Below, piece by piece: positions 10,403 to 28,874 of a stretch of 28,874 nucleotides of DNA. Location: contig CBDHHL010000054.1 of assembly GCA_965263355.1 (NCBI GenBank), forward strand, positions 1-28,874, given 5' to 3'. The notes under the pieces are model-generated. The model ran no database searches. It was given only the letters and a program-made list of their open reading frames with translations, and was not told the origin of the DNA. The position numbers and the translations under genes are program-made. Position 1 is the first letter of the stretch. Every line of letters begins with the position of its first letter. Source of the stretch: Leptolyngbyaceae cyanobacterium. Its GTDB lineage: Bacteria > Cyanobacteriota > Cyanobacteriia > Phormidesmidales > Phormidesmidaceae.

Positions 10403-10426
10403 GTCATTCACTCAACATCACTACAA

Positions 10427-10786
10427 ATGGAGAACCTTCCCATGATTACCAATACGAAAAAAATTCTTACACTTGGTCTGAGCCTGGGCTTGCTGGCCAT
10501 GATTGCTCAACCTATTCGATTAGAGCCTCGTCAGCCAGATCAGATTGTTCAAAATGGCTTGCGTCTCAATGGTCTACGCCTAAATGGCCTGCGCTTAAAT
10601 GGTCTACGTCTCAATGGTCTGCGTTTGAATAGTCCAGCCTCCAATCAACAGGCTGTGAATCTATCTGAAGAGACTCCACCTGATTGGTTAAACCCCTCTA
10701 TTACAACCGTTCAGCTGCCTGGTCATAACAACGTTGACAGCATTCTGCTCGAAGACGGTAAACTCTCCTTTCGGTCAGCTGAATAG
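10427..10786 (+). CDS. Small, probably exported protein with (NGLRL)5 repeat
   Basis: KK plus hydrophobic N-terminal segment (signal peptide-like); five exact NGLRL repeats; lies between two co-oriented genes. Confidence 0.75.
   Translation: MENLPMITNTKKILTLGLSLGLLAMIAQPIRLEPRQPDQIVQNGLRLNGLRLNGLRLNGLRLNGLRLNSPASNQQAVNLSEETPPDWLNPSITTVQLPGHNNVDSILLEDGKLSFRSAE
10553..10627 (+). repeat. 5 x 15-bp coding tandem repeat (NGLRL)
   Basis: aatggcttgcgtctc / aatggtctacgccta / aatggcctgcgctta / aatggtctacgtctc / aatggtctgcgtttg; all differences are synonymous. Confidence 0.95.
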
Positions 10787-10804
10787 GTATCCACAAGGGT
10801 AATC

Positions 10805-11566: not shown

Positions 11567-11616
11567 AACCGGGATTGAAGATTACGCATCCAACAACACA
11601 AACTCGGGTTATCGTA

Positions 11617-12153
11617 ATGCCTAATTCTCAAACACTCGCTATTAGCCGACAAGACTACGGGATCAAACTCTTATTTCCTAACGATGCGGCACATTTGCAA
11701 ATCCTGTTTGATCAATGCGCTGACTTTTTTATGATGACTAACGGCGCACCCGCTGCCCCAACTACAGCTGCCGAAGAGTTTACTGATGTTCCTGATAGCA
11801 AAACGCCTGAAGATATTAGTGCATTTGGATTGATAGACGACCACGGCCATCTTATCGGCACTCTCATTGGGGTACAGCAGTACCCTGACGCTGACACCTG
11901 GTGGATCGGGCTTATGCTGCTGGCTCCTGAATATCGGAGGCAAGGGCTCGGACGAGATTTTTATCGCGCTTTTGAGCAGTGGATTGGCCAGCAAGACTAT
12001 CAGTTTATCGCGCTGTGTGCAATCTCATCCAACACTGCTGGTAGACAATTTTGGCAGCGCATGGGATTTGAAGAGCGCCGAAAAACACCGCCGCGAGTCT
12101 ATGGCACCAAAACTCATGCGGTTCATGTTTATCAACGACAAATTAAATCATGA
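11617..12153 (+). CDS. GNAT-family N-acetyltransferase
   Basis: IGLMLLAPEYRRQGLG (acetyl-CoA motif A), N-x-x-G-x-x-FW-x-x-MGF. Confidence 0.88.
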   Translation: MPNSQTLAISRQDYGIKLLFPNDAAHLQILFDQCADFFMMTNGAPAAPTTAAEEFTDVPDSKTPEDISAFGLIDDHGHLIGTLIGVQQYPDADTWWIGLMLLAPEYRRQGLGRDFYRAFEQWIGQQDYQFIALCAISSNTAGRQFWQRMGFEERRKTPPRVYGTKTHAVHVYQRQIKS

Positions 12154-12181
12154 CAACCCAAATAACAGGAGATCGAAAATC

Positions 12182-13453
12182 GTGAATGTTTTTATCGTAA
12201 CGGCAGGTTCACGGGGCGATGTGCAGCCTTTTATTGCCCTGGGTCAAGGCTTAAAACAAGCTGGGCATACCGTTACGCTCTGCACTTGCTCAAGTTTTAA
12301 GACATTTATTACCGAGCATGGTCTGAACTATGGCTACATGAACAATGACTTCATCAAGCTAGTTGGTTCAGAAACGGGGCGTAAAGCAATAGAAGGAGGG
12401 AAAAATGCCTTTAGCCTGATTAAAACCTCCCTAACCTTACTAAAAGAGTCCAAGGCCCTAAATCGGGATATGCTCGAGGATGCGTGGAATGCTGCGCAAG
12501 CTGTCCAGCCCGATATCATCATTTTCCATCCTAAAGTGCTGGCAGGTTCACACATTGCAGAGAAATTAGGCATTCCAGCCATTATGGCGCTGCTGGTGCC
12601 TGCGATTGTCCCCACGGCTGAGTTCGTTGCTACGGGCTTTCCAAATTTAAAGCTGGGCGCTAAATACAACCAGCTTTCCTATGGGATTGTGCGCCGAGGA
12701 TATCGTATGTATGACGATGTCGTGAACGAATTTCGCCAAACAACTCTCGACCTTAGCCCAGTCCCTAAAGATCAGAATCCTTTGCAAATGAGCAATGGCA
12801 AACCAATATCAGTAATACATGGCTATAGCAAACACATTTCCCCACGCCCAAACGATTGGCCCAGGACGGCTCATACTACGGGCTATTGGTTTTTAGAGCA
12901 TAGAGAAGACTATCAACCTCCCAGCGACTTGGTAGATTTTTTAGCAGCAGGTGAGGCCCCCATTTATGTTGGCTTTGGCAGTATGGCTGGGCGCAATCCA
13001 GAACGGATAACAAGTGCTGTGATAGAGGCCATTCAACAATCAGGAGTACGCGGCATTATTGCCACAGGCTGGGGTGGCTTAAAGGCAGCCCACTTACCAG
13101 AAACCATTTTCAAACTTGAACACGTTTCCCACGACTGGCTATTTCCTCAGGTATCGGCAGTGATTCACCACGGAGGGGCAGGCACCACTGCCGCTGGGCT
13201 GCGGGCAAGTAAACCCACTATCATCTGCCCTTTTCTAATTGACCAACCTTACTGGGGCGAACGCATCTATTCACTAGGAGCCGGCAGTAAACCCATTCCA
13301 CAAAAGAACTTGACAGCGACGAAACTGGCTGCCGCAATTCGAAAAGTGACAACAGAATCCTCCATTCAAGAAACTGCTGAAAGAATAAGCAGCAAACTCA
13401 ATAGCGAGGATGGCATTGGTAATGCCATTTCAATCATAGAGAACCACCTGTAA
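12182..13453 (+). CDS. GT1-family glycosyltransferase (sterol glucosyltransferase-like)
   Basis: GSRGDVQPF, PIYVGFGSM, HDWLFP, HHGGAGTT, DQPYWG; likely GTG start at 12182 after AGGAG. Confidence 0.9.
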   Translation: MNVFIVTAGSRGDVQPFIALGQGLKQAGHTVTLCTCSSFKTFITEHGLNYGYMNNDFIKLVGSETGRKAIEGGKNAFSLIKTSLTLLKESKALNRDMLEDAWNAAQAVQPDIIIFHPKVLAGSHIAEKLGIPAIMALLVPAIVPTAEFVATGFPNLKLGAKYNQLSYGIVRRGYRMYDDVVNEFRQTTLDLSPVPKDQNPLQMSNGKPISVIHGYSKHISPRPNDWPRTAHTTGYWFLEHREDYQPPSDLVDFLAAGEAPIYVGFGSMAGRNPERITSAVIEAIQQSGVRGIIATGWGGLKAAHLPETIFKLEHVSHDWLFPQVSAVIHHGGAGTTAAGLRASKPTIICPFLIDQPYWGERIYSLGAGSKPIPQKNLTATKLAAAIRKVTTESSIQETAERISSKLNSEDGIGNAISIIENHL

Positions 13454-13474
13454 TCGAAGAAACACTTTTTTATC

Positions 13475-14362
13475 ATGAGTCAACAAGACTTAAAAAACAT
13501 TATTGCAATGCTGCCAGACTTTGTCTGGGGTGAGACCCCGGCTGAGATGAGAGAAAACTTTGAAGCGGGTTTCACATTGCCGACCCATCCAACTGCCCAA
13601 GTAACCTCCATCGATGCTGATGGTGTCCCTGCAGCACTTATTGTTCATCCTCCAGCTAGCTCTAACGTGATTCTCTATCTCCATGGTGGAGGCTTTATTA
13701 TGGGGTCCTGCCAAACCCATCGCCGTATTGCTGCTGACCTGGCTGAAGCGTCAGGAGCGAGTGTACTCTGTCTCGACTATCGCCTTGCTCCAGAATATCC
13801 ATTTCCAGCTGGGCTAGAAGATTCACTAACGGCCTATCACTGGCTGCTTAAGGAATTCCAGCCTCAGCAGATAGCACTTGTCGGAGATTCAGCTGGAGGA
13901 AATCTAGCGTTAGCCACACTGTTATCTTTACGGGATGCAGGCAAAACCTTACCAGCATCAACCGTTTTGATTTCACCTTACTGCGACCAGACCAGAACAA
14001 GTCAAACTATCGTAAGCCACGCTGAAAGAGACCCCATGGTGTCATCAGACCTGCTAAACACTGTCACTGCTTGTTATGCACCCAACAGAGATTTGCAAAA
14101 TCCGCTGATTTCACCAATATACGGTGACCTGTCAGGACTACCACCCCTACTTGTTCATGTTGGTGCAGCTGAGGTTCTACTGGATGATGCACTCAAACTT
14201 GTGCGTCAGATCGGCTTAGTCAATGGCTCCGTTGAAATCAAGGTTTGGCAAGATATGATTCACTGCTTCCATCTATTTGCACCAATCTTATCGGAAGGGC
14301 GAGTTGCTATCTCAGAGATAGCGACTTTCTTGAATCGTTACTGGTCATCATCTCAGGAGTGA
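13475..14362 (+). CDS. Alpha/beta hydrolase, HSL-family esterase
   Basis: HGGG oxyanion motif, DYRLAPE, GDSAGG nucleophile, C-terminal MIHCF histidine. Confidence 0.92.
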   Translation: MSQQDLKNIIAMLPDFVWGETPAEMRENFEAGFTLPTHPTAQVTSIDADGVPAALIVHPPASSNVILYLHGGGFIMGSCQTHRRIAADLAEASGASVLCLDYRLAPEYPFPAGLEDSLTAYHWLLKEFQPQQIALVGDSAGGNLALATLLSLRDAGKTLPASTVLISPYCDQTRTSQTIVSHAERDPMVSSDLLNTVTACYAPNRDLQNPLISPIYGDLSGLPPLLVHVGAAEVLLDDALKLVRQIGLVNGSVEIKVWQDMIHCFHLFAPILSEGRVAISEIATFLNRYWSSSQE

Positions 14363-14411: not shown

Positions 14412-15836
14412 CTAAAAATAGTCAAACGTACGACGCAGAACAAGCTCATTATCTGCAGTAATTGTTCGAGTACCACTCTCCATCATCGAAATAAGCCCTT
14501 GACTAATCCCAGTTAGCATCGCCAACTTACGCTGACTCCAGCCCTTTTCCGCCCTAAGACTCTTAATTTCCTCTGGAGTCAACTTAGGTACCGCAGGCTC
14601 TATCTCAACAGATTCCTCTGCCACCTCTCCAGACGGAAGATTGGCCGTATCCCAACTCTCAGGCGGAGAAACCAACAACTGCGCCTTTAACAACTGATCA
14701 AAAAATCCCCTAGGCCGACGACTCGTATCCCGCCCAAACCCCGACGGCTGAATCTCCACCGGATACGTCTCAGCATCAAACGTAATCTGCCAACCCCGAT
14801 CATGTAACGCCAGCAAATCCTCATCCCACGTATTCGTCAGCTTCTTCCGCAGTTGATTATCCGACTGCGCATTGTGCACACGTTCCACACCATAGGCCAC
14901 CTCCAACAGAGTACGCACTCGCAACGGATGTTGTGGACTAAACTGCGCCTTAAACAACAGCCACACCATCAATCGAGCAGCCCCCGCCCGGTGCTGCCAA
15001 ATGCTCATCACACTTTCCAACAGTGATTTCGGCAACACACCTGGATTCACCGGCAGCTCCTGCTCCTGAGCCGCTTCCTCATTCAAAAAGTACTTAGCCC
15101 ACAGCCCCGCCTTCACCACAAAGGACATCCCAGTCAGCTCTTTATTCCCAAAAATATCCTGCTGGTAATGATGGCGAGTACCCAAGAGGTGCCACAGGCG
15201 TCCTTCCTCAACCGTAAACCCCTTTCGCTTGCCGTGGCGCGGCCAGGAAATCAGTGTCGTAATCTTACAAGGCTGTTTAACAATCTCCTCAATCAGCGCT
15301 AGCTTCTCACGACGGTTTTTATCTGTACGTCGCTGCAAACCAAGATAGGCCTCAATTTGGCGATCATCAATCACCAACTCCTCTTCCCAGGGCCGTTCCA
15401 TCTGAGACGCATGGGCCGCCAGGATCAGGTGTATACACGCCGCCCGAATATCAAACGTATCAATAACCGCCAGGGCCGCCGCCCCCGCTAAGGCGGCAGG
15501 ATGTTCTTCTTCCGTATTGTCCGCAACCCAGAAACAAATTGCCCCCTGGCCATCATTAACCTCACGGCTATAGATCAGCTTGCCATCGGGATCAGTGGTC
15601 CAAGGCAACTGCTGACGCTGGGTGAGAATATTGCTCGCTTCCCAGATTGGCAATGAGGACGTTACTTTAGTCAGCGATCCCTGATCAAATAGATCTGGAT
15701 TTGTTTTAGGACGCTCACCTGGGGCGGATTTAGTGGCAGGCTGTTTCTGCTGTGTCGCGACAGAACGACTTGCCCGCGTCTCAGCATCTAGTTTTTTGTT
15801 AGATTTTGAGGCCATTGGATTCCCTGACTTCAACAT
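14412..15836 (-). CDS. Plasmid protein with C-terminal XRE/Cro HTH; possible replication or origin-binding factor
   Basis: C-terminal IKSLRAEKGWSQRKLAMLTGISQGLISMMESG is an HTH_3 motif; the roughly 400-aa N-terminal part is unassigned; divergent from the Rep-like gene across the repeat array. Confidence 0.8.
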   Translation of the reverse strand: MLKSGNPMASKSNKKLDAETRASRSVATQQKQPATKSAPGERPKTNPDLFDQGSLTKVTSSLPIWEASNILTQRQQLPWTTDPDGKLIYSREVNDGQGAICFWVADNTEEEHPAALAGAAALAVIDTFDIRAACIHLILAAHASQMERPWEEELVIDDRQIEAYLGLQRRTDKNRREKLALIEEIVKQPCKITTLISWPRHGKRKGFTVEEGRLWHLLGTRHHYQQDIFGNKELTGMSFVVKAGLWAKYFLNEEAAQEQELPVNPGVLPKSLLESVMSIWQHRAGAARLMVWLLFKAQFSPQHPLRVRTLLEVAYGVERVHNAQSDNQLRKKLTNTWDEDLLALHDRGWQITFDAETYPVEIQPSGFGRDTSRRPRGFFDQLLKAQLLVSPPESWDTANLPSGEVAEESVEIEPAVPKLTPEEIKSLRAEKGWSQRKLAMLTGISQGLISMMESGTRTITADNELVLRRTFDYF

Positions 15837-16019
15837 TGTTCACGTCCAGGACGGTCATTTGTCCGTAGAAGAATCTACAGGTTTTAAATTGGACGTGGTT
15901 TAGAGAGCATCGGACGGGCAAGAAAGAACTATGCCAAGCTTTACACCACGCGGTGAATTATAGCGCCATATTCACACATATGAGGACAACTTACAGAAAG
16001 CGTGAATATTCTCATAGTC

Positions 16020-17315
16020 GTGATTACATTTAGCCTCAAAACCTCCATTTGATTACAAAATTCTCTAGACCCTGGCACCTAAACTGAGACAACAATAGTC
16101 AACACACCAGATAGCAACAGCTTTAGATGATTACAAGTAACTTTAGAACTCAAGCTCGATTACAAGTAATTCTAGAACCTAGACCCTAAAAATAGATCGT
16201 ACAAACCGTTGAAGTGATTACATTTAGGGGCGATAACGGCTGTGATTACAGGTTTTCTCTAGAACCTGAGCCCAAAGTTGATTACAACAAAGCCTAGTCC
16301 CTCGACCTGATTACAAACGTTTCTAGACCTCAGGCTTGATTACACAATTACTCTAGAACCCGAGCCCTAGAAAATCAGTCAGAAGCCTCATTGAAGTGAT
16401 TACATTTAGAGCTGATAGTGGCTGTGATTACAGGTTTTCTCTAGAGCCTGAGCCCAAAGCTGATTACAACATAACCTAGAGCCTCGACCTGATTACAAAT
16501 GTTTCTAGAACCTGGGCTTGATTACATGATTACTCTAGAGCCTAGTACCTAAAGTATGGTGTTGATGGGGAGTTAAAGGTGTTGCTTGGGGTCCCTCCGA
16601 GTTCCCCAACCCCCCTGGGCAGGGCCGGAACGCCGCCCTACAACCCAACGTACTGAGTTATTCCTAATGGCATTAAGTAAGGAGTTACGGCGAGGTCGAT
16701 TATATGTATCCCGGACTCGTTTCGATAACAGATTTAGGGCATCAAACTCACATCATGCTGCTATTGCTTATGAGCCCTAAGGTCGCTCATTACTAGATTA
16801 CATATGCTTTCTAGACTCTAGATCTCAAAGTTGATTACAAAAGGCTCTAAAGGCTAGACCTGATTACAGGTATCTCTAGAACCTGGTACCTGTAATCACA
16901 CTAGAACATTCCAAGAAGGCGGCATTTAGAAGCAAAACCCTAATCTTGATTACATTCTTGTTCTAGAGCTCAATCCCAAAGTGATTACAGAATTACAAAC
17001 ATACAGTTCTGATTACATCAATACTCTAGAGCCAGGCCCCTTCAGTGATTACATCCATGGTTCCCAAAGGGATTGATTACACGATTTATCTAGGGTCTGG
17101 CCCCCATAATGATTACAAAGTAGCTCTAGAACATGGACCGGAAAATTCTAGGTCCCCTACCCCAAACTCTCTAGACCCCATACCCAAAATTTTGATTGTT
17201 GTTATGTGATATTTCCCGACAACAAAAGAGTCTGATTTTTTTAGCCCTCTCAGAAGCTAAGCCATGATTACAAATTTTCTGTTATCAGAACAATCCAGGC
17301 AAGATTTTGTAATCA
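16020..17315 (+). repeat. Iteron-like array, consensus TGATTACA-N6-7-TCTAGA; putative replication origin
   Basis: About 24 direct GATTACA copies counted by eye, mostly spaced about 29 or 36 bp; two inverted copies (16891, 17308); a roughly 182-bp higher-order duplication (starts near 16209 and 16391). Confidence 0.85.
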
Positions 17316-17577
17316 GTCGATCTGTTATAAGCAGTGAAGTCAATATGAGTAGTTCATTTGTATAAGGCGCAATCACACAATTAAAACTCAGTGCTGTCAA
17401 GTGCTTTAGGCCATTTTGAAGCAGAACAGTTTTAGTTCTGTTCTTTTGGGTTTCTATCCCTAGCTGTCAGCAGGGTTGTTTTATGTTGCCAAAATACAGT
17501 CTACTCGTAGACAACGGGAATCACTCATCTGAGTGCAGCAACATCTCGATGTTGTTAACGGAACTGTAGACTGAAGC

Positions 17578-19449
17578 GTGACATTGGCTCTACCAAATCC
17601 ATTTGAATACGTGCAAGAACGAAGCAATCGATTTCTTGCACTATTTCCCCATCGTCATGATTACATCTACGCGAACCATCCATCACCGGGTAAACGCCCC
17701 CAATGGCAAACGGAAAGTCGGCATCCGTTATCAGACCGGCTGATTGAACAGGGTACTTATCTCTATGGTGTGCGATTTGGGAAAGAAACCCAGTACGCCA
17801 TGGTGGATATTGATGTTGGCAGTGCGTACCATCCCAGGCGGGATCCCATCGCGTTTCAAAAACTGACCGAGGCACTAGAACCCTTAGGTCTAGTCTCAAC
17901 GATCACCTGCACCTCATCCGATAGTCAGGGCCTGCACCTGTATTTTCCATTTTCAGAATCACTGACAGCTTGGGAAGTGGGCAGTGGCATCACATTACTT
18001 CTGGAAAGCCAGGGATTTAAGGTTACGCCTGGTCAACTTGAAGTCTTTCCGAATGCTCGGCTGTACACCATCGAAAGTACACCGAATCTATTTAATGCGC
18101 ACCGGCTCCCCCTACAGCGTGGGTCGTATTTACTGAATGATGATTTAGAACCGATCTGGACTGACCAGACTACCTTTGTCGATCAGTGGAGACAATGCCA
18201 GAGTCGCAACATCCTAAGTAATGAGACACTGCAACGGATCATCAAACAAAAAAAACGGCGCAGTTATCGTCTCTCGAATAAGGCTGACAAGTTTCTAAAC
18301 GATCTCAATGCTGAAATTGAGCAAGGTTGGACTGACCATGGACAAACGAATCGATTGCTAGGACGTATCACCATGCGGACCTATGTATTTCACCATGTGA
18401 TGTACGGTGGTGAACCGCTAACCGGGGACAGTCTGATCAAAGAAGTTCTAACTGTTGCAAAAGCGTTACCTGGTTACGAGTTGTGGTGTCGTCACCAGCA
18501 TGAAATTGAAGACCGTGTTTCAGAGTGGGTCAGCTGCATTGAGAAAAGTCACTACTTTCACTATGGTGAGCAGTTTGGAAAATACAAATCTAAAAAGGAG
18601 ACGCCAGAATCTGAAGATACTGATCTCAGTTGGAATCAACAGCAGAGTCAAAAGACTAAAGATAAAATTCAAGCTGCTCTTAAAGAACTCACAGATAAAA
18701 ATGAACTTCCAGAACAGGCAACTGCTAGATTCAATGCCCTCCGAAAATTTGGCATCGGGGGTGGGTCGCTATATCGATATAAAGACCTTTGGCATCCACT
18801 CTGGAAATCACAGAAGAAATCCCCCCAGACCCCCCAATTTAATAATGAATCTGGACAGTTTGGCCAGGCTAACGCGCCAAACTGTCACAGCTCCACAAGC
18901 TTATTACAAGAGATAGATGGTAATAATAATAAAATCAATGGTTCTAGCGATCTGAAATCTGTTGCACCTCAACCAGAGGGTGGTAATCCCAATCGAGAAG
19001 GGATTCAGCGTATCCGAGAGATGTTGTCGAAGGCTCAGGTCACTGTCGATTTGCAGGCCGCTCAGGAGGTGATAGAGGCTGAGGAGATGCTGGCTCAGGA
19101 GTCTAGAGCAGCTCACCTGCAGCAGATGGCTTACTGGCTAACGTTGGATGACCCGATTTTGATGGCAGAGGCCCTGGCATGGTTACAGCAACAGCCGCCT
19201 GAGCTATGTGCTGAGTTGTTGGATACGAAGCTGTCAGATATACAGCAGCAGTCGTTAGAGACGATTGTGGAGATAGTAGAGCAGCTGCAGCGGTTGGATT
19301 GGGGTCCAAGAAGGATAGGGGAGGAGTTGCGAAGCTTCTTCGAAGCGGCAGGGCCAACGCAATTTTCCAAATCCTCCCTCGCCCATCTCACAGCTGAGAA
19401 ACGACAACAGTGGTTATCTTATTTACTTTCTCTTTCTGACACGGGGTAA
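17578..19449 (+). CDS. AEP primase-like protein, putative plasmid replication initiator
   Basis: AEP motif I (MVDID) and motif II (SSDSQGLHLYF), LEVFPN; lies directly downstream of the repeat array. The Rep role is inferred. Confidence 0.7.
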   Translation: MTLALPNPFEYVQERSNRFLALFPHRHDYIYANHPSPGKRPQWQTESRHPLSDRLIEQGTYLYGVRFGKETQYAMVDIDVGSAYHPRRDPIAFQKLTEALEPLGLVSTITCTSSDSQGLHLYFPFSESLTAWEVGSGITLLLESQGFKVTPGQLEVFPNARLYTIESTPNLFNAHRLPLQRGSYLLNDDLEPIWTDQTTFVDQWRQCQSRNILSNETLQRIIKQKKRRSYRLSNKADKFLNDLNAEIEQGWTDHGQTNRLLGRITMRTYVFHHVMYGGEPLTGDSLIKEVLTVAKALPGYELWCRHQHEIEDRVSEWVSCIEKSHYFHYGEQFGKYKSKKETPESEDTDLSWNQQQSQKTKDKIQAALKELTDKNELPEQATARFNALRKFGIGGGSLYRYKDLWHPLWKSQKKSPQTPQFNNESGQFGQANAPNCHSSTSLLQEIDGNNNKINGSSDLKSVAPQPEGGNPNREGIQRIREMLSKAQVTVDLQAAQEVIEAEEMLAQESRAAHLQQMAYWLTLDDPILMAEALAWLQQQPPELCAELLDTKLSDIQQQSLETIVEIVEQLQRLDWGPRRIGEELRSFFEAAGPTQFSKSSLAHLTAEKRQQWLSYLLSLSDTG

Positions 19450-19464
19450 TTTAATGGGCTACTT

Positions 19465-19573
19465 GCGATCGCATCCTGATATAAGAAACAAGTATTTTTC
19501 TTCGCGATCGCACCCCACACCAAATCGAAGCATAGGCAACTTGAAATCGCAACAAAATCCCCTTTGCGATCGC
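19465..19573. repeat. Cluster of three HIP1 octamers (GCGATCGC)
   Basis: Copies at 19465, 19504 and 19566; others seen at 8788 and 21190. Confidence 0.85.
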
Positions 19574-19714
19574 ACGCAAAAACCATGAGATCTCACCCCT
19601 GAAACATAGCCCACCCAACGTTTTTCATATACATAACCTGCACCACCAAAACTTTAAATCTTGATTTTATTCCTTAAGAGAAAAGAGCAAGAGGGGAAGA
19701 GAGAAAAGAGCAAT

Positions 19715-20524
19715 TTAGAGCCCTGGGGGCGCACAACTCACTCGAAAACCGATAATGTTGTTGCGGTTGCCGGGCGATAGTAGTTGCGCGAGGCGGAGCG
19801 GCAATACCTAGGAAAGTAGAACCACGAGCCGCCGCGTCGCACCCGATATGCCTCTGAATTCTCGGTCAGCCAGGGGCTTCCATCCTTTGGAGCCTGATCA
19901 TAATTGCTATGCCAGTGGTCCGCACACCATTCCCACACATTGCCGTGCATATCGCATAGGCCATAGGCATTGGCTAGACCAAAGTGTGTTACATCGACAG
20001 TCTCTTCCAGATATCTCCCCTTTGGACCATTGTTATAGGTAGATGTCGCACGATAGTTGGCCACCTCATCCGTCAGCGTCTGTCCAAAGTAAAAAGGTGT
20101 CTGAGTGCCTGCACGACAGGCATATTCCCACTGGGCCTCGCTGGGCAGTCGTGTAGGGCCTTCCTGTATGGGCCGCTAGCCGTGCACAAAACTCCTCTGC
20201 CTCGTACCAGCTCACCCGCTCCACCGGGCGCTTGGCTCCCTTAAATTTAGCTGGGTCAGAGGGCAGTTCTATATGCACCTGATCCATGGTCACTACTGCC
20301 TGCCACTGGGCCTGGGTCACCGCATAGCGCCCCATTAGAAAGGTGGGAACAGTTACCCTATGCTGTGGCCCCTCTGAATCGCTACGCTGGGGTTCATCCT
20401 CTGGAGAGCCCATCAGAAACTCACCACCGGGCACCAGCACCATATCTAACCCAATGCCATCGCCCAGGTCTTCCGTAAAATATTGCGCTGTATCCGTACG
20501 CCGACGAATCGTAAGTTCAGCCAT
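19715..20524 (-). CDS. DGR target 1: stand-alone FGE-sulfatase/CLec-fold protein (about 269 aa; two frameshifts as given)
   Basis: Joined frames give [62 protein letters not shown]; +1 near 20152 and -1 near 19773. Confidence 0.85.
19723..19836 (-). repeat. DGR variable repeat VR1
   Basis: Aligns to TR with 10 substitutions, all at TR adenines, plus a 1-bp deletion. Confidence 0.93.
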
Positions 20525-20578
20525 AGGGGTCTCTACAAACGCTACCGCATTCTAACCTACGTTCCTGCCTCCCTGCTG

Positions 20579-20619
20579 CCCAGGCTCTGCCTGGGTACAC
20601 CCCCCAGAGGCTCTGCCTC
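20579..20619. repeat. REP-like double mini-hairpin element (cccaggc-tct-gcctggg ... gaggc-tct-gcctc)
   Basis: Two perfect stems with 3-nt loops; related copies at 20699-20737, 23521-23560 and 24272-24293. Confidence 0.7.
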
Positions 20620-20627
20620 CAAACAAG

Positions 20628-20839
20628 AATCCGCCAACTCTTCGGTTTCCCTACCAAGCTAGCGGACCCGGTTTTATTTTTGGATGCCCTCTCAGTTACA
20701 GGCTCAGCCTGAACTGGATATCCTGAGGCTCTGCCTCTAATACAGACATCGCCGGAGCAGGTCTGGACTCTTCTGAGGTACGCCCGACAGATTCCCATCT
20801 GCCAGTTCTGACCAGGCCATTGCTGACCGTTGAAGAGTG
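20628..20839 (-). ncRNA. Putative structured 3-prime spacer of the DGR template RNA
   Basis: Segment directly 3-prime of TR; minus-strand stems need G-U pairs (ctggcagat/atctgtcgg, gatgtct/gggcatc, gtccgctagct/agttggcggat). Confidence 0.6.
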
Positions 20840-20954
20840 CTGGGGGCGCACAACTCACTCGAAAACCGATATTGTTGTTGCGGTTGCCGGGTTGATTGTT
20901 GTTGCGCGAGGCGGAGCGGCAATTCCTAGGATTGTTGATCCACGAGCCGCCGCT
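20840..20954 (-). repeat. DGR template repeat (TR), 115 bp
   Basis: AAC/AAT-rich copy of the target C-terminus ([37 protein letters not shown]); starts 8 bp after the RT stop; carries A at every position where the VRs are substituted. Confidence 0.95.
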
Positions 20955-20961
20955 CTGCGGC

Positions 20962-22053
20962 CTACCCCACAGATAGGTTATCAGCCTGATCATCTAGCTC
21001 TCGCACAAATACCAATTGATCAAAGATTTTTCGGCGTAACCGATGGGTATCCCCATGGCTCAGGTGCGCTTCCCAGCTACTCAGTCGCTGCACCAGGTCT
21101 TCGAGCCCCACTTCACCCCTGGCATACAGCCCCTGTAATAGCTTCATGCGTTTTCTTGCCCGCTGCAAATTATCATTGCGTACACGGATGCGATCGCGCA
21201 GCACCCGAAACCCGACAAAATTGGCTCCATACCGGGTTTCAAATAGCTGACTCTTATGCGGATGCAGTCTCAGCCGCAGGGATGCTAAATACTCCTCCAT
21301 CGCTGCCCTAGCATCCGCTAGCACCGACCACTCATCCCCAAAGGCAACAAAATCGTCAACATATCTCAGATAGCGCCGTAGCTTTAGCTGCTCTTTGACA
21401 AAATGATCAAATGGGTTCAAATACAGATTGGCAAAAAACTGACTGGTCAAATTCCCAATGGGCAGACCCCGGCGTCTTTCAACCGGCGTTAGCAAGTCAT
21501 CCCCAGGGAAATACTCAACCACCGGCATCTGAGGGTTACTGGCATCGATAATTTTATCAATCAGCCATAGCGTATCCGGGCACTTCAGCTTACGCCGCAA
21601 CAATCCTTTGAGAATCTCATGATCGATTGAGGGAAAATACTTTGAAATGTCACACTGCAAGCAGTAACGATAGCGACGCGCCAGCCCCACAAATTTCGTC
21701 AGTGCCCGATGGGTGCCATAGCCCAATCGATTGGCATAGGTATGGCCAATCAGCGTTGGCTCCAGCAGCGGTACGATCACATTACACAGCGCATGGTGCA
21801 CCACCCGATCCCGATAGGGGGCTGCCGAGATCATCCGCACCTTGGGATCGTGAATATAAAAAGTGTAATACTTGCCAGGTGTGTAGGTCTTGTCCCGCAG
21901 TTCCCGTTGCAGGCTCAACAAAGAGCGCTCCAGATGGTAATTAAACTCCAGCACATTGGGCCGATAGCGTTTGCCCTTTTGGGCCTTGCGAGAGGCTACT
22001 AGCAGATTTTCAAAGGTAATAATCTGGGGCCACAGGTTACCGTAGCGCTTCAT
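20962..22053 (-). CDS. DGR reverse transcriptase
   Basis: [24 protein letters not shown]-type [18 protein letters not shown]; 363 aa with no maturase or endonuclease domain; intact ORF. Confidence 0.96.
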
Positions 22054-22457
22054 GCCAGCGCAGGCTTCAGAATCGGCTTAGGCTGTGGCTTGCGAGGGGG
22101 CACAGTTGCTTGCCTAGACTGCTGTTGCTTGATCCACCCACCCAGGTCGGTCCCAATGCCATCAATCAGCTCGCTCACATAGGTATAGCGCTGGGCAGAC
22201 AACAAATTAAACTCAAACAGCAACCGAGTCTGGTAGCGCAGCACATCCAGCTTGCTATTGAGCGTCTGCAGTACATCCAGCTTATCTTGTTGATACTGGG
22301 CCACAACTAGCGCTTCTAGCAGGTCATAGAGCCCATTGATCGTCCGATCCCCTAGTTGAAACCGATGATTGCGTGGCAGCTTTTGCAATATCGGCACGTA
22401 CCACTTAATCAGATCATAGGTTTTCTGAATAATTGGCAGCTCTTTTCCCTGGCTCAT
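22050..22457 (-). CDS. avd: DGR accessory variability determinant (four-helix bundle)
   Basis: [37 protein letters not shown] overlap with the RT start. Confidence 0.92.
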
Positions 22458-22641
22458 TTAGTCACTGAGGTAGATGTCTGTTTTTGAAACTACTCTAATC
22501 CCATCGCTTTCAGATCAAGATTTATGCCCCCGTAAGCATTGCGCAACACTTAAATACTTTTCTTGAAGAATATAAACCTATCCGTCTCTGCTTATTTTTA
22601 TTTCTTTAGAGAAAAGAGCAAGAGGGGAAAAGGAAAAAGGA

Positions 22642-23495
22642 CTATGGAAGAGAGCCTGGGGGCGCACAACTCACTCGAAAACCGATATCGTTGTTGCGGT
22701 CGCCGGGTAGATAGTAGCCGCGCGAGGCGGAGCGGCAATACCTAGGATTGTTGAGATCCACGAGCCGCCGCGTATCACCCTGCTGGCCTCTGAATCCTTT
22801 GTCAGCCAAGGACTTCCATCCTTTGGAGCATCATCATAATTTTCATGCCAGTGGTCAGCACACCACTCCCATACATTTCCATGCATGTCGTACAGGCCAA
22901 AATCATTGGCCACCTCGAATAGCCCAACAGGTGTCGTCTCTTTCGATACTCCCCTTTTGGCCCATCTCCATAGGAACCAGAGTAAGTCTTATTATTGATT
23001 TCCCGATCCTGCCCACAGTAGTTCGCCAGGTCCGTCGTAATCGTTGCCCCAAAGTGAAACGGCATCTTGGTACCTGCTCGACAGGCATACTCCCACTGCG
23101 CCTCGCTAGGCAGTCTATAGCGCCGTCCTGTATGTATCGACAGCCGTGCACAAAACTCCTCCGCCTCATACCAACTCACCTGCTCCACTGGGCGATCCTC
23201 ACCCTTAAAGTTAGATGGCTCCAGCGGCATCTCCATATTTACCTGGGGCAGCCCCGCCACTGCTCGCCACTGGGCCTGGGTCACCACATACTTCCCCAGA
23301 AAGAATCCAGACACCGTCACCTCATGCTGTGGCCCCTCCCACAAACCTATCCACCTCCGTCCCTGGTGAGCCCATCAGAAACGTGTCACCGGGGATCTGC
23401 ATCATCCACAGGGTGATGCCACCGGGCAGTGCCTCATCGTAGTAGGTCACCCGCTGCTGCCGTTTATTAATGACTACATTCACCGCCTGGACCAT
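22642..23495 (-). CDS. DGR target 2: stand-alone FGE-sulfatase/CLec-fold protein (about 284 aa; three frameshifts as given)
   Basis: ATG 23495 after a GGAG RBS; same FGE motifs; ends [13 protein letters not shown]; frameshifts near 23341, 22942 and 22754. Confidence 0.85.
22656..22772 (-). repeat. DGR variable repeat VR2
   Basis: 9 substitutions versus TR, all at adenines, plus a 2-bp insertion near 22754. Confidence 0.93.
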
Positions 23496-23568
23496 AGTAA
23501 TTCTCCCTCTCTCTTCGGCCCCAGGCTCCGCCTGGACGGACACACCTGAGGCTCCACCCCCAGCAATC

Positions 23569-23979
23569 TCAATCCCTTTCTTCTACCCAATTTTCCAAAT
23601 CAACACCAGGATACGCCCGAAAATCATCCAAATTATTAGTCACCAACGTCAAACTCAAACTCCTGGCATGACTAGCAATCAGTTTATCTAACGCATCCCG
23701 TTTGCGGTCGGGCACCGCCGCCCTAACGTCAGCATAGACACCCGCCGCCACCTGATCAAAGGGCACGGATGGAATCAACTGCATTAAAGCAACCAACGCC
23801 TGCTGATTTTGCTGACGAGTCTTATCACCACTTACCCGTACCCCATACTCCAGCTCAGCTACTGTAATCGCAGAAATCACCACATCCCCCTGACGACACT
23901 CAGCAAAACGTCGAGCCACCGACGGTGGCTGATGCTTCATCAGATAGATGCAGATATTCGTATCCAACATATACTTCAT
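23569..23979 (-). CDS. vapC: VapC PIN-domain toxin
   Basis: YMLDTNICIY, ISAITVAELEYG, DKLIASHA, LVTNN; ATGA overlap with the antitoxin gene. Confidence 0.93.
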   Translation of the reverse strand: MKYMLDTNICIYLMKHQPPSVARRFAECRQGDVVISAITVAELEYGVRVSGDKTRQQNQQALVALMQLIPSVPFDQVAAGVYADVRAAVPDRKRDALDKLIASHARSLSLTLVTNNLDDFRAYPGVDLENWVEERD

Positions 23980-24209
23980 AGCGCTTCTCGATCCTGAGTT
24001 CCCTGGTCCGGGCGTCCCGCTACCATAAAGTCTGCTGAAAACGCAGCAAATCGTTCCATTACATCCAACAGCGGAGGACCGACAGGACGAATAATCAGCA
24101 CGTCCCCCTGGCGCTCAATCTCATAGTCAATATCAAGCCGATCAAACTGTAACTCCTTAGGAATCCTTATCGCCTGAGAGTTACCACTCTGAAAAACACG
24201 AGTCCGCAT
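23976..24209 (-). CDS. vapB: VapB antitoxin (AbrB/SpoVT fold)
   Basis: TRVFQSGNSQAIRIPKE and IERQGDVLIIRP. Confidence 0.93.
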   Translation of the reverse strand: MRTRVFQSGNSQAIRIPKELQFDRLDIDYEIERQGDVLIIRPVGPPLLDVMERFAAFSADFMVAGRPDQGTQDREAL

Positions 24210-24232
24210 CAGTGTTTGCCTTAATCACCACT

Positions 24233-24252
24233 TGTATACACAAGTATATACA
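24233..24252. promoter_or_regulatory. Imperfect palindrome upstream of vapB; candidate autoregulatory operator
   Basis: TGTATACACAAGTATATACA, about 24 bp upstream of the vapB start. Confidence 0.5.
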
Positions 24253-24350
24253 GATTTTACATCCACACTCAGTCCCAGGCTCCGTCTGGGGACAAGAGAA
24301 GGAGATACCCTGAGCGAAAAGAGCAAGAGGGGAAGAGTATAAAGAGCAAG

Positions 24351-26264
24351 CTAGAGCCCTGGGGGCGCACAACTCACTCGAAAACCGATATGTCGTAGTC
24401 GCGGTTGCCGGGTAGATAGTCGTCGCGCGAGGCGGAGCGGCAATACCTAGGATTGTTGATCCACGAGCCGCCGCGTAGCACCCGTACAGCCTCTGAATCC
24501 TGCGTCAGCCAAGGGCTTCCATCCGTTGGTGCCCCCTTATAATCTTCATGCCAATGGTCCGCACACCATTCCCACACATTGCCATGCATGTCGTACAGCC
24601 CAAAGTCATTCGCCACCTCAAAACATCCCACAGGTGTAGTCTCTTGCGATACCGTCCCTTTGGTCCATACCCATAGGTATAGCTGCCGTCGTAATTAGCA
24701 ATATCCGTCGTCAACGTCGCCCCAAAGTGAAACGGCGTTTCGGTCCCTGCCCGACAGGCATACTCCCACTCTGCCTCACTCGGTAGCCGATACTTCCGCC
24801 CCGTATACACCGACAGCCGCGCACAAAACTCCTCCGCCTCGTACCAGCTCACCCGCTCCACCGGGCGATTATCTCCTTTAAAGCTTGACGGGTCCGACGG
24901 CATTTCTACATTTACCTGGGTTAGCCCTGCTACAAACCGCCACTGGGCCTGGGTCACCGCATACTTACCCAGCCAAAACTCAGGGACCGTCACCTGATGC
25001 CGTGGCCCCTCAGAGCTTTGACGCTCAGTTTCGTCCCTGGGCGACCCCATCCTAAACGTCCCTCCAGGCAATGCCACCATCTCCAGGGTCAACCCATCCG
25101 TCAGTGGCTCCACCCACTGCCGTCCCTGCCGCCGCTGCCGGGTCACCACCCACTCCACCGACTGTCGCCCCGGCAATAGCCGCGTCAGCAGATTACCTCT
25201 CTCTCGCTTCTCTAACCGCCCTGTCCTAAATTCAAAAGTCTCTAATCTATAGTCTGCTGACCTGGCGCAGCCCGCTCCGCAACCTCTAGCTGCACCTCTG
25301 CTACCGTCACCATTTCCTGCTTTAGCTCTGGCCAGGACTCATCCACAGCGGCCTCATCGGGCACTGTAGCCGCATCCAAAATCTGTGCCGTCACAAACTC
25401 CAGCGTCTGAAACTCGGGCAGCTCTGCTCTAATCCCCTCCAAACTATCCGAATCTGCAGCTACCGATTGAGGCCCGTTAAACGAGACAGCCTCAGTTGCA
25501 TCCACACCAGCACCAGCCGTCTCCCCTGAGAGAATTCGATTCTTATCTCTCAGCTCTCGCTGCAGCATCGACGGTAGTTGTAAAGACTTCCCAGCCACCT
25601 CATAGGTCTTCTCCACCCGCTCCGCTGCTAGCTGCTGATTACTCCGCTGCACATCGCTCACCAGCGACGCATACTCAATTAACTCAGGATAATCCGACAG
25701 TTGCCCCCTCAGAGTTTCGGTCACCTGAGCTAACCGGGCCATCTCCGCCCGACTGAGTAACTCACGGCCCACCTGTTCTCCCTGCGCCATACTGGTCTGA
25801 AAACGGTCGGCGATCTCGGTAACTACTTTTTCTTTCTCTGCTGACCCCAAATACACCATAGCCGCCCACTGCTGCGTCTCTAACTCACGATCCGTGAGCT
25901 GGGCATTTTTGGCCAAATAGCCCACATAGCTAATCAACAGATTCGCCACATCCCGCTTACGCTCATCCGTAAACCTATCAGAGCCATGCGCTAAAACATA
26001 GGCCCGCACATCCGTATCCATGGCGTACAGCTCATAGCCCACCTGGGAGAACAAATCTGACAACAGCAGATCCACCTCCGCCATCCACGGCACCTCTCGC
26101 AAAAACTGATGACGCAGATAGCCCACCAACTCCGGCGTCAATACCAACGGCAACGCCGCATGGCACACCAGTTCGTAGTAACCGGGCTCAAACCGCTCCA
26201 CAAAGCGCTGCACCCGGCGCTCGGCCCGCTCCTTACGTTCGTCTAGTGTCAGCCCCTCAGCCAT
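24351..26264 (-). CDS. DGR target 3: multidomain protein (vWA-associated helical N-terminal domain, acidic linker, C-terminal FGE-sulfatase/CLec), about 637 aa; three frameshifts as given
   Basis: ORFs 25242-26264, 24505-25176 and 24374-24631 join with single-base corrections near 25244 (giving [15 protein letters not shown]) and 24646 plus the VR indel; ends [11 protein letters not shown]. Confidence 0.8.
24359..24475 (-). repeat. DGR variable repeat VR3
   Basis: 9 substitutions versus TR at adenines plus a 2-bp insertion near 24392. Confidence 0.93.
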
Positions 26265-26282
26265 TGCGTCAGCTATCTCTCC

Positions 26283-27401
26283 CTACAGCACCTGCGGTTG
26301 CAACCCACGGATCACATCAATGGCATTACTCAGCCCATCATCATCCATTTGAAACATCCGCACAAGATTAGCGACAATCTCGGCAGAGCTCCCCGACCAT
26401 CGCTCCACTGGCACCGGGTTTAACCAGGCACATAGCTGAGTTCGCTGCCGCAACTGTCGCAAAAATCGCGTCGTTGCTCGAATTCTTTCTAACCGTCGAT
26501 ATCCCCGAGAAGCTCCACAATCACTCACCACCAAAACACTGGTATTGGCATCACAGGTAGCCAGCACCGTTGCCAGGTCCACCGGCTGAGTCATAAATGC
26601 ATCGGTGTAAACATAGTCCGCAGGCACATTTTGAAAATAACAAACCGTCACCTGCTCTTCCGGCAAACCGCTTTCATAAAGGGCCGTATCAACTACCTCA
26701 CGGGTAAGCGAATGCAACGGCATCATCGAACCATTTTGATCAATAAACAACACCAACTGCGCCCGGTTATACCCCCGCCGCCGCATCACCGGCTCTAAAT
26801 AAAACCCCTGCTGGGCCGCCCGCTGCACCGTCGCCGCCACATCTAAAATATCCGCCGGCCCCTCCGCCACCGTACGCCGCAGATAGCGCCAGCCATAGCT
26901 CATAGACCGCCTCGACACCGGCAAATAGCCCTGCAAATCCACAGCCTGAGCACTCTCAGCTAGCGTAAAGGGTGCCCGCACGGGTTGAGCAGCCGCATCT
27001 ATGGCCGCACTCTCTTCTTTTTGGGTAATCGCCTGCGGTGGGTCTTGCCTAGGCATCGATGACGGCAACGGCTCCACCGCAGCAGCCGGGGCAGGCTCAC
27101 TATCGTCATCCACAAACCTCACCGACGCACTGCTGGCAGCCATCTCTTCTAGGCCCTTTTGCCACAGGGGCTCAAACTGCACCCGCTCATCCTTAGAGCT
27201 ACACCAGATCAGCACCAGCGCCTGCTTTAGCCCATCGAGATCCGGGAACTCCTCAGACAACGGTGCCAACGGACTGGCCGCATCACTCACCAGGGCCACC
27301 CCCGCCAGCAGCTCCTCCACCCCCAGGTTAAAACCGCTCTGGCGCAGCCGCCCAAAGGTCTCAAATATCAGGTCTGGCAAATCCTCTCGGGTCATGGTCA
27401 T
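26283..27401 (-). CDS. vWA-domain protein (CoxE-like, MoxR partner)
   Basis: LDVAATV, MIDAS-like FIDQNGSM, VVSDCGA, WLNPVP; overlaps the moxR stop. Confidence 0.88.
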   Translation of the reverse strand: MTMTREDLPDLIFETFGRLRQSGFNLGVEELLAGVALVSDAASPLAPLSEEFPDLDGLKQALVLIWCSSKDERVQFEPLWQKGLEEMAASSASVRFVDDDSEPAPAAAVEPLPSSMPRQDPPQAITQKEESAAIDAAAQPVRAPFTLAESAQAVDLQGYLPVSRRSMSYGWRYLRRTVAEGPADILDVAATVQRAAQQGFYLEPVMRRRGYNRAQLVLFIDQNGSMMPLHSLTREVVDTALYESGLPEEQVTVCYFQNVPADYVYTDAFMTQPVDLATVLATCDANTSVLVVSDCGASRGYRRLERIRATTRFLRQLRQRTQLCAWLNPVPVERWSGSSAEIVANLVRMFQMDDDGLSNAIDVIRGLQPQVL

Positions 27402-28368
27402 GAAGAAGCCGCAAACCCAGCCCGACGCCAGTCGCCCCGCAGCTTAAACAACAGCTCCTTGTAGGGCAGTTCACCTGCCTTGGCCTTTAGCGCCTCCGCC
27501 GCATAGGGCTCGTTGGCAAAGTGGGCCAGGGCCCCCAACCAATCTAAAAATTCACTGGTCCCCGGCAGCTTGGTTAACCCCTTCTGACCCCGAATCGCCA
27601 AAAACTCATCCAACGCCGCATCCACCAAGTCTGCTGACGGGGCAGGTTTTACCTCTGCTTCTCCCTGTTCAGCCATCTGCTGAAAGTGGATTTCCACAAT
27701 CTTTTTCAGATCATCCCGCTCGGGAAACTCAATAAAGTAGTACACACATCGCCGTAAAAACGGAGCAGGCAAATTTCCTTTCTCTTTATTACTGGTGATG
27801 ATCACAATGGGTGGGTACTTAGCCGTAATCGTTCTACCGGTCTCCCGCACCCGAAACGCATAGGGTTTCTCCAACAGCGCCAGCAAATCATTGGGAAAGT
27901 CCAGGTCCGCCTTATCAATCTCATCGATCAGCACCACCGACGGGCAATCATTCCTAAACGCCTGCCCCAACTCCTTAAATTCTAGATAATTCATTGACAT
28001 TCCTCGGATTAGCCGTACGTTGGCCCTCCCTTGCTTTGGCATTCACATCCTTTCAGCAAATTGACATCATGCAGCCGCAGCAGTGCATCGTATTCGTACA
28101 ACCCCTCCTGATACCGTGTAGTCGAGCGAATATTCCATCGATAAAGCGGATACCCCAGCTCGTGGGCCACCGCCGATGCCAGTCGCGTTTTGCCACAGCC
28201 CGCCTCACCCTCCAGCAACAAAGGCCGCTTTAGAAAAATCGATAGATTGACCGCCTTGATTAACTCCTCAGAGGGTAAGTAAGGCTCTGCTCCCGGACAA
28301 TCAGCATGAATAGCCTCGGGTTCAGTAGGACGGTTCTCCGAATTACCAGTAAAAAATCTCATAAGCAC
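27398..28368 (-). CDS. MoxR-family AAA+ ATPase (frameshifted near 27990-28050 as given)
   Basis: RPLLLEGEAGCGKT and YDALLRLHD in one frame; VVLIDEIDKAD, IITSNKE and LPAPFLRRC in another. Confidence 0.88.
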
Positions 28369-28391
28369 TCAAGCCATTACCCATCACAACA

Positions 28392-28874
28392 CTAAGCATT
28401 ACAAAACTCTTTTTCAATCGCATCACGAACAATTGATGGAATCCCACCCATACCACGCCTGTAGAAACGAGCAGCCACCGTTTCAAGTTCCCTCGCTGGT
28501 AATCCTGTAAATTCTAACCAATCTTCAATATCATCTTTACTCCAGTTACCAAGATCAATATTTAAAACCTTATTAGGCTTAACGCTAATATCATTTTCAT
28601 CAGTTAACAAAGGAGACATAATCTCCAGGCAACTTTCAGGCAAAAAATCATCTGAAACAACAACAAGGAAAACATAAACACGTCGCCATGATTTTTCAGA
28701 AACAACTTTTGATAATTTAGAAATTAGCTTTGGGTAAAATGTCTCACAGAGCCAGCTAAATACATGTTCTTGCTCAGGAATCCTATGCCACTGCTTAATT
28801 TCCAGGAATAGAATACTCTTACTACGCAAAGATTCACAAATTCTCTCAACAACATTCTCTAAGAGTTCATCGAA
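28392..28874 (-). CDS. C-terminal part of an inactive-STAND (iSTAND)-like first component of a MoxR/vWA system (truncated by the window edge)
   Basis: Frame is open to the edge (FDELLENVVERICESLRSKSILFLEIKQW); LGNWSKDDIEDWL and GGIP resemble STAND helical motifs; lies directly upstream of moxR. Confidence 0.55.
   Translation of the reverse strand, partial: FDELLENVVERICESLRSKSILFLEIKQWHRIPEQEHVFSWLCETFYPKLISKLSKVVSEKSWRRVYVFLVVVSDDFLPESCLEIMSPLLTDENDISVKPNKVLNIDLGNWSKDDIEDWLEFTGLPARELETVAARFYRRGMGGIPSIVRDAIEKEFCNA

Follow-up and report, generated by a model that had tools for sequence, protein, structure and literature searches.

We analyzed a stretch of 28,874 nt from a Leptolyngbyaceae cyanobacterium (contig CBDHHL010000054.1 of assembly GCA_965263355.1; hereafter the window) and found that it carries a diversity-generating retroelement (DGR), likely plasmid-borne, that probably serves a split-form iSTAND-type MoxR-vWA ternary conflict system. 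As read from the sequence, the DGR rewrites the C-type lectin (CLec) tips of three target proteins from one template in an adenine-specific manner, and the system adds a member to a class that has already been described. On the minus strand, from 28874 to 19715, the run consists of a cut-off iSTAND-like open reading frame (ORF), moxR, vWA, target 3, vapB, vapC, target 2, avd, the reverse transcriptase (RT) gene, the template repeat (TR) and target 1 (Table 1).

The original prediction, made from the nucleotide sequence alone, had described a single co-oriented run with targets on both sides of the RT, and our ORFs and family matches reproduced this order, with all genes on the minus strand. 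The finer points of that description held as well. Target 3 begins 18 bp past vWA (26283/26264) and has a long N-terminal domain before its CLec domain, and targets 1 and 2 are bare CLec proteins, whose intact orthologs gave an FGE-sulfatase match only. A join of separate loci by misassembly, which the prediction had allowed for, can be rejected because the isolate Leptothoe spongobia TAU-MAC 1115 (NZ_JADOES010000007.1) holds the complete run intact and collinear at approximately 85% DNA identity. Its proteins are 337 aa (iSTAND), 320 aa (MoxR), 372 aa (vWA), 638 aa (target 3), 282 aa (target 2) and 269 aa (target 1) long. The genes are the same as in the window, but the iSTAND allele of L. 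spongobia is a different one and most of its vapBC is deleted. A second relative, Leptolyngbya PCC 7375 (JH993795.1), has the same target 2-avd-RT-TR-target 1-rep block, upstream of which lies a hydrolase-caspase-VMAP-MoxR-(vWA-FGE) system that is not matched by its DGR.

The three-target DGR that had been proposed proved genuine. Between the one TR and the three variable repeats (VRs), 25 of 83 adenines were changed and none of the 258 other bases, far beyond chance, and both RT and Avd are intact. The same adenine-only changes were found in L. spongobia (37/87 A, 0/255 non-A) and PCC 7375 (25/60 A, 0/168 non-A). The VRs lie at the 3′ ends of CLec-fold genes, whose frames are broken in the assembly, and all three targets gave FGE-sulfatase matches. 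The TR and all VRs have 31 nt in common at their 3′ ends, the initiation of mutagenic homing sequences (IMH and IMH*), and diverge beyond. The window TR differs from that of L. spongobia by one base, and the TRs of the window, L. spongobia and PCC 7375 differ at few positions. Because eight of eight matched VRs bear the letters of their own TR, all matched VRs were rewritten after the three lineages separated.

The window RT is 93% identical to that of L. spongobia and 92% identical to that of PCC 7375. A search of genome contigs confirmed 276 RT relatives, of which we analyzed the best 80 (many of these loci are short); they are 55-93% identical to the window RT and nearly all labelled cyanobacteria, and the minimum identity reported for RTs of the cyanobacterial DGR clade is 55% (PMC7517822). 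The best plasmid matches of the RT adjoin annotated avd genes, and the closest RT in the metagenome scan, among the matches listed, is 76% identical. A phage origin was not supported, as viral RTs reached at most 37% identity over long matches. The TR:Sp pairing stem and the GGAA-loop hairpin of the spacer RNA are kept in related loci; such elements have been described for cyanobacteria (bioRxiv 10.1101/2023.10.23.563531), and Rfam gave 0 matches in the window. Having two to three targets is common in this clade: among the 68 loci in which a TR and a VR could be paired, 36 have that number, and three local targets occur in 11.

According to published descriptions, the DGR of Bordetella phage BPP-1 (PMC3240598, PMC12875486, bioRxiv 10.1101/2023.10.23.563531) has the same RT, Avd, TR/VR pair, IMH/IMH* and structured spacer RNA. 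However, its target is a tail fibre, whereas the window targets are cytoplasmic-type proteins, and it has a GC hairpin, whereas the window VRs are followed by a pyrimidine tract with a 7/8-nt repeat in the place of the hairpin. DNA folding behind the three window VRs gave no stable hairpin (z +0.5, -1.1 and -0.5), and a GC-rich hairpin downstream of the IMH is reported for only 34% of DGRs (PMC5758913). The tract follows each window VR and is absent after the TR. Across 67 loci with a TR/VR pair, including the window (L081, with a cut TR, and one VR at a contig end were dropped), the tract was found after 113 of 113 VRs but after none of the 67 TRs; among 637 other ORF ends, 8 had it, and several of these 8 resemble missed targets. 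Its unit approximates T(T/A)RC(C/T/A)CTYT, recurs at a distance of 7 nt (150 of 414 spacings) or 8 nt (149 of 414) and mostly occurs in 3-7 copies. A stricter finder recognized the tract in 104/105 of the genome set, 59/74 of a separate metagenome set and 0/54 viral DGRs; a GC hairpin is present in 29 of these 54. The positives all come from one clade. Among plasmid DGRs outside cyanobacteria, four have the hairpin, and Prosthecochloris was the fifth one looked at. In eight VR flanks of three close loci, paralogs were 76% alike within the tract and 36-43% beyond it.

Presence of the tract went together with the match to the TR. We compared 26 full CLec genes of L. spongobia and PCC 7375 (30 loci out of 38 matches, with four TRs or fragments dropped). 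The tract was present in 10 of 10 genes with 0-1 non-A mismatch, whereas 12 of 13 genes with at least 19 non-A mismatches lacked it, including the vWA-FGE gene adjoining the PCC 7375 DGR (Fisher p 1e-5, with paralogs that are not independent). In the remaining three CLec genes, L091, L093 and L095 (G001:C37, L. spongobia), which have 3-8 non-A mismatches to the nearest TR, the tract is broken by a REP-like palindromic insert. These genes lie beside a MoxR and fused vWA-CLec cluster, and it looks as if homing had stopped after the insertion; alternatively, they may have lost their cognate TR. A CLec gene of PCC 7375 (L100, G002:C5) has a full tract and no match among the two TRs found, and it is either an orphaned target or one whose TR is unassembled. 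Genome-wide, a strict pattern search also picked up perfect microsatellites of GCCCTCT/ACCCTTT that are not near CLec genes, in 3/5 genomes. A loose three-unit pattern was not specific, with 12 and 37 matches when the reversed control gave 12 and 18.

Three modes of action of the tract found no support. Pairing with the spacer RNA was better for cognate than for non-cognate RNA in 38/67 loci, the mirror arm expected of H-DNA measured 4.46 compared with 4.28 in shuffled sequence, and four or more CCC runs, as for a G-quadruplex, occurred in 14/67. Because these three are unsupported, a protein-binding array is our best guess, and the tract is probably such an array. We lean toward the view that cyanobacterial DGRs use a periodic array of pyrimidine repeats, where BPP-1 has its hairpin, to address their targets. 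For DGRs without a hairpin (approximately two thirds, PMC5758913), the tract would be a candidate for local and remote target choice, and it has natural negatives in two cultured strains. We did not find the tract described in the DGR literature searched, which comprised text passages of openly available papers; Fig. 6C of PMC4143802 aligns the 3′ UTRs of 12 targets and could show it.

The genes upstream of target 3 belong to the ternary system. The first had been called iSTAND-like, and a profile search of its partial ORF matched a family profile of 113 relatives (E 9e-35). The window fragment alone reached 17.1 bits against Pfam iSTAND, below the cut-off of 24; the complete L. spongobia gene at the same position matched PF19995 at 28.3 bits (cut-off 24), and PF19995 was found in 111 and EAD9 in 92 of 114 aligned family members. 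By these matches, the upstream gene is an EAD9-iSTAND homolog. The family consensus lacks a GK[ST] Walker A motif, and the corresponding region of this gene lies outside the window. The gene has been exchanged, as it is only 25% identical to that of L. spongobia and AT-rich (GC 0.37 vs 0.51-0.57 downstream) amid neighbours that are 85-93% identical. One contig of the metagenome runs described below leaves the window sequence after 28574, suggesting several iSTAND alleles ahead of one moxR. The MoxR coding sequence is identical to the intact L. spongobia ortholog at 863 of 965 columns and has no VMAP-type N-terminal extension; the ortholog lacks PsWR, which the VMAP-associated MoxR of PCC 7375 (392 aa) has. 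The vWA protein is 93% identical to that of L. spongobia, matches PF05762, keeps the invariant residues D221, G224 and S225, and has 282 relatives of 204-651 aa. The locus does not fit a VMAP ternary system, which has VMAP-C as its third component and a vWA fused to its effector, as the upstream gene is an iSTAND gene and the vWA stands alone.

Residues 1-240 of target 3 have no Pfam name. We found 388 relatives of this N-terminal domain (N-domain), and among those listed the domain starts the protein in 119 of 120; behind it, relatives have FGE, caspase-TPR, nSTAND, iSTAND or amylase domains. It is 85% identical between the window and L. spongobia. A CoxE vWA occurred in 14 of the 80 RT loci, and the N-domain was present in all 14. 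In one protein (P0121), the vWA is fused to this N-domain (49% identity at residues 389-569); it represents at least one fusion among 8000 longer candidates scored, a count in which fusions may be underrepresented. An HMM of the N-domain matched no VMAP-type vWA proteins, and profile-profile comparison alone linked it to their post-vWA segment (probability 51%, E 1.5e-4). The linker has been named vWA-L, and in a minority of iSTAND systems a separate adjacent gene is reported to encode vWA-L together with the effector (PMC8195603). By its position, the P0121 fusion and the profile match, on which the name rests, the N-domain of target 3 is a separately encoded vWA-L.

In its structural model (pLDDT 89.5), the N-domain is similar to the winged helix plus arm found in STAND ATPases. 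It aligned with MalT at Z 10.2 (rmsd 6.3, 142 aligned) and with plant NLRs, Dark and CED-4 at Z 6-8; Foldseek gave no match for it at E 0.001, and an Atlas search yielded clusters without names and one weak lead, WHD_MalT at 0.76. The complex model of the window vWA with the N-domain scored 0.72, compared with 0.14 for the best of three controls, and the mark was reached by 116/157 solved pairs and 2/215 mismatched pairs. At least 32% of the contacts agreed between runs, with a partner pLDDT of at least 82. The modelled contact joins vWA residues 224-231, 298-299 and 329-334 to linker residues 44-68, several of which are invariant. A passing score was likely beforehand because the pair represents the halves of a protein that is fused elsewhere. 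We consider it likely, from these models, that target 3 docks on the vWA through its winged-helix vWA-L domain. The earlier inference of an anchored receptor thus gained from the fusion, the co-occurrence in 14/14 loci and the predicted docking, whereas the novelty of the split layout fell away, the layout having been published (PMC8195603). In the text passages of PMC7159879 and PMC8195603 searched, we found no winged-helix assignment of vWA-L and no docking model; 'winged' and 'wHTH' gave 0 hits in PMC8195603.

The original prediction had also placed the system in a known class, and the published split vWA/linker-effector layout agrees (PMC8195603); the prediction stood on the DGR, the iSTAND gene and the class, but overstated the novelty of the layout and missed ten frameshifts. 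Described iSTAND MoxR-vWA systems share with the window the order iSTAND, MoxR, vWA, a MoxR without VMAP extensions, a CoxE-type vWA, FGS/CLec as the commonest effector, and vWA-L plus effector in a separate adjacent gene (PMC7159879, PMC8195603). However, the DGR link described in these two sources is for VMAP systems, and iSTAND rows were not found in the available portion of the Kaur 2020 supplements (PMC7159879). Similarly, the cyanobacterial DGR clade (Lineage 4 of Wu 2018, PMC5758913; clade 5E of Dore 2024, PMC10907252; PMC7517822) is described with the same target-avd-RT-TR layout, several CLec targets, short CLec-only and long targets, MoxR/vWA neighbours and plasmid examples. We noted no structural difference between this clade and the window, and no mention of the 3′ repeat tract was found in the available parts of these three papers. 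The intact, compact and all-soluble copy in the cultured isolate L. spongobia, with its specific predicted vWA-linker interface, lets the assembly of a ternary conflict system be probed.

Overall, we provide a putative mechanism for the window system. As the sequence shows, RT-Avd makes adenine errors when copying the TR, and the copy takes the place of the last ~37 codons of the three CLec genes. The IMH and the pyrimidine tract, the latter in the place of the BPP-1 hairpin, would plausibly address these targets. Target 3, the likely detached effector half of the usual vWA component, would dock on the vWA through vWA-L. The last step follows the published model, with sensing, threshold and relay patterned on Kaur 2020 (PMC7159879) and Dore 2024 (PMC10907252), and as a whole we favour it only slightly: the variable CLec tip may bind an invader-derived ligand, MoxR may remodel the vWA-bound complex as a threshold switch, EAD9-iSTAND may relay to effectors encoded elsewhere, and targets 1 and 2 may be free binding-domain copies that widen or buffer the repertoire.

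Several observations weigh against this proposal. The window iSTAND gene is cut off, and its N-terminal adaptor is taken from its relatives (EAD9 in 92/114). The PCC 7375 vWA-FGE gene beside the DGR core mismatches the TR at 29 of 79 non-A positions; therefore, DGR adjacency does not imply coupling. To our knowledge, neither ligand, effector nor phenotype is known for any such system. Compared with the intact locus of L. spongobia, ten frameshifts are present in the window; they lie in moxR (+1 near 28050, +1 near 27992), target 3 (-1 near 25270, -1 at 24643, +2 at 24393 in the VR), target 2 (-2 at 23342, -1 at 22942, +2 at 22753 in the VR) and target 1 (+1 at 20151, -1 at 19775 in the VR), so that neither MoxR nor any of the three targets has a full reading frame in the assembled window. 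The vWA, avd and RT genes are free of them, and vapB and vapC are both whole ORFs; if the breaks were uniform, their restriction to moxR and the targets would have P 0.005.

We compared the window with contigs of three runs (X1-X3) of the same study, which are not independent and may include the source sample, and with parts of one other run (X4). At least four of the ten frameshift sites (20150, 24645, 27992 and 28049) were reverted in the same-study contigs, as judged from the 12 of 45 indel rows listed. Both extra moxR bases are left out in X2 and X3 contigs, and the extra base near 20150 in target 1 is left out in X1 and X2 contigs. Several haplotypes are present because the contigs differ from the window and from one another around 27985-28023. 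Stretches with identical contigs (parts of RT-avd, vapBC and vWA) are free of breaks, and X1 and X2 contigs cover most of the RT without any difference. VR frameshifts were found in 3/3 VRs of the window compared with 5/112 VRs of 67 other loci, all five in metagenome-assembled genomes, and the window VRs are changed at 8, 9 and 8 adenines, whereas the median is 15 and only 6/107 VRs have nine or fewer such changes. Averaging over a diversified population would give both the VR frameshifts and VRs unusually near the TR. We are therefore fairly confident that most of the frameshifts are errors of a consensus drawn from a mixed, diversified population. The case warns that an active DGR can seem dead in the consensus of a metagenome.

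A decayed copy, in which the frameshifts are real, moxR and the three targets are pseudogenes, the intact RT, Avd and TR perhaps serve remote targets, and vapBC is kept by addiction, seems unlikely to us. It would account for the six sites without a reverting indel among the rows listed, and for the part of the X2 depth that lacks the reverting indel at 20150 and 24645 and the X3 depth that lacks it at 20150; moreover, contigs drop minor variants, and X1-X3 possibly include the source sample. Real VR indels exist, with frameshifts reported in 11/372 DGRs (PMC5758913), and dead cyanobacterial DGRs are known (PMC4143802). However, the vWA, useless without MoxR, is untouched, the indels lie where the contigs differ from the window and none in the long identical stretches, two paralogs are broken at one and the same codon of their constant regions (24643 and 22942), and the VRs lack any non-A substitution.

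We also doubt that the two structural models describe one split NLR, in which iSTAND would supply the nucleotide-binding domain (NBD) and helical domain 1, target 3 the winged helix, the arm and a DGR-rewritten sensor, and MoxR-vWA would replace the lost nucleotide switch of a single STAND receptor. The L. spongobia iSTAND model (pLDDT 93.3) resembles the NBD and helical domain that precede the winged helix in the same STAND chains, and both models map end to end on MalT 8bob_D (12-235, Z 12.2, rmsd 4.5, 211 aligned; then 246-397), NRC2 (152-368, 386-545) and Dark (118-336, 344-579). The iSTAND family proteins stop just past the G-x-P helix, with G319 and P321 nearly invariant, and two proteins (P0083 and P0104) have the target-3 N-domain fused ahead of iSTAND, P0083 with a weak EAD9 match between. 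In contrast, the same domain follows the vWA in VMAP systems without iSTAND, the conserved N-domain face is predicted to bind the vWA, and between the window and L. spongobia the N-domain is 85% identical but iSTAND only 25%. Z scores of 6-10 are modest for helical domains, Foldseek gave nothing at E 0.001, and the parts lie on two genes with moxR and vWA between them, so that the likeness to a single-chain STAND/NLR receptor is one of resemblance only. It is improbable that tract-addressed targeting and a split NLR-like receptor with a hypermutated sensor and an external MoxR-vWA motor both apply.

Regulatory tuning rather than defence, with CLec domains that sense host, symbiont or metabolic signals as modelled by Vallota-Eastman 2020 (PMC7517822), would fit the run in that it has no recognisable toxic effector except the accessory vapBC; we regard it as rather unlikely, since rapid iSTAND exchange, plasmid location and EAD adaptors suit conflict systems as described in PMC7159879. 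Finally, target 2-avd-RT-TR-target 1 has little chance of being an autonomous passenger cassette. On that reading, the ternary system would be an exchangeable neighbour, and its CLec would be diversified for no other reason than having acquired the 3′ end of a target. The same core does adjoin a VMAP system in PCC 7375, where the vWA-FGE gene is no target, and 46 of the 80 RT loci have no MoxR in the sequence covered (many are short). However, 34 have a MoxR system (19 VMAP-type, 15 of the window type), and in two lineages VR3 is an exact match to the TR and has kept the tract.

Table 1. Positions of the features of the conflict system, the DGR and the adjoining region in the window.
Feature	Position	Strand	Basis or remark
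iSTAND-family C-terminal half (end of NBD and helical domain 1, stops just past G-x-P helix)	28392..28874	-	family profile; 5′ part beyond window
MoxR-type AAA+ ATPase, two +1 frameshifts	27398..28362	-	AAA/AAA_5/AAA_2 matches on two ORFs
Stand-alone CoxE-type vWA, 372 aa, intact	26283..27401	-	VWA_CoxE 39.8 bits, cut-off 26.4
Target 3: vWA-linker (vWA-L) domain, linker, CLec (FGE-sulfatase); three frameshifts	24351..26264	-	
VR3 and IMH	24359..24474	-	8/28 A changed, 0/86 non-A, +2 indel
Pyrimidine 7/8-nt repeat tract after VR3	24311..24346	-	
vapB antitoxin, accessory	23976..24209	-	NF040493 over cut-off
vapC PIN toxin, accessory	23569..23979	-	PIN 59.6 bits
Target 2, CLec-only, three frameshifts	22642..23495	-	ortholog 282 aa
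VR2 and IMH	22656..22771	-	8/28 A changed, 0/86 non-A, +2 indel
Pyrimidine repeat tract after VR2	22608..22643	-	
Avd, intact	22050..22457	-	NF033474 135.7 bits, cut-off 80; bAvd match
DGR reverse transcriptase, 363 aa, intact, YVDD	20962..22053	-	RVT_1
Template repeat and IMH*, 114 nt homology, 28 A	20840..20953	-	
Spacer RNA: TR:Sp pairing stem and GGAA-loop hairpin	20745..20839	-	RNA fold z -2.45
Target 1, CLec-only, two frameshifts	19715..20524	-	ortholog 269 aa
VR1 and IMH	19723..19835	-	9/27 A changed, 0/86 non-A, -1 indel
Pyrimidine repeat tract after VR1	19675..19710	-	
Probable plasmid replication protein, 623 aa	17578..19449	+	matches to plasmid records
Iteron-like direct repeats	16006..17135	no strand	

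The contig is likely of plasmid origin, as had been proposed: a rep-like gene, iteron-like repeats, ParA/ParB and a tyrosine recombinase lie in the left part of the window. The 623-aa rep-like gene has no Pfam or NCBIfam name and matches 74 plasmid records, cyanobacterial in every name listed; its ortholog also abuts the DGR in PCC 7375. The iteron-like TGATTACA repeats lie between this gene, which is divergent, and a 474-aa gene with a C-terminal HTH (14412-15836). Within 16000-26300, all targets face the rep/iteron region, as in PCC 7375. Homing is reported to favour targets co-directional with replication (PMC12875486). Further left (10427-11566), a gene for a small protein that looks secreted and has NGLRL pentapeptide repeats precedes an ADYC-domain gene. 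The cargo block 4129-14362 includes a BTAD-AAA-TPR regulator divergent from a methyltransferase, an RTX-repeat protein, a GNAT protein, a glycosyltransferase and an esterase, with no frameshift evident.

A promoter scan gave a chance-level count (7 vs 7.3), and no strong terminator was seen behind the targets. The vapBC module (23520-24294) is flanked on both sides by REP-like palindromes; L. spongobia has lost most of it, PCC 7375 lacks it altogether, and an X4 contig omits 23692-24012 of this region, as L. spongobia does. The DGR-rep block stands beside a VMAP system in PCC 7375 (L004, 712-8439) and an iSTAND system in the window (24351-28874), and DNA similarity between the two starts inside the CLec domain. 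The L. spongobia DGR (L003, 12379-21089) abuts not a rep gene but tail-sheath- and tube-like ORFs, which we take to resemble a contractile injection system. In Acaryochloris marina (the L001/L002 pair), plasmid pREB2 has no RT but retains a TR along with CLec genes and a MoxR system, and pREC1 has avd-RT in the opposite orientation, with an insertion sequence between them and the TR.

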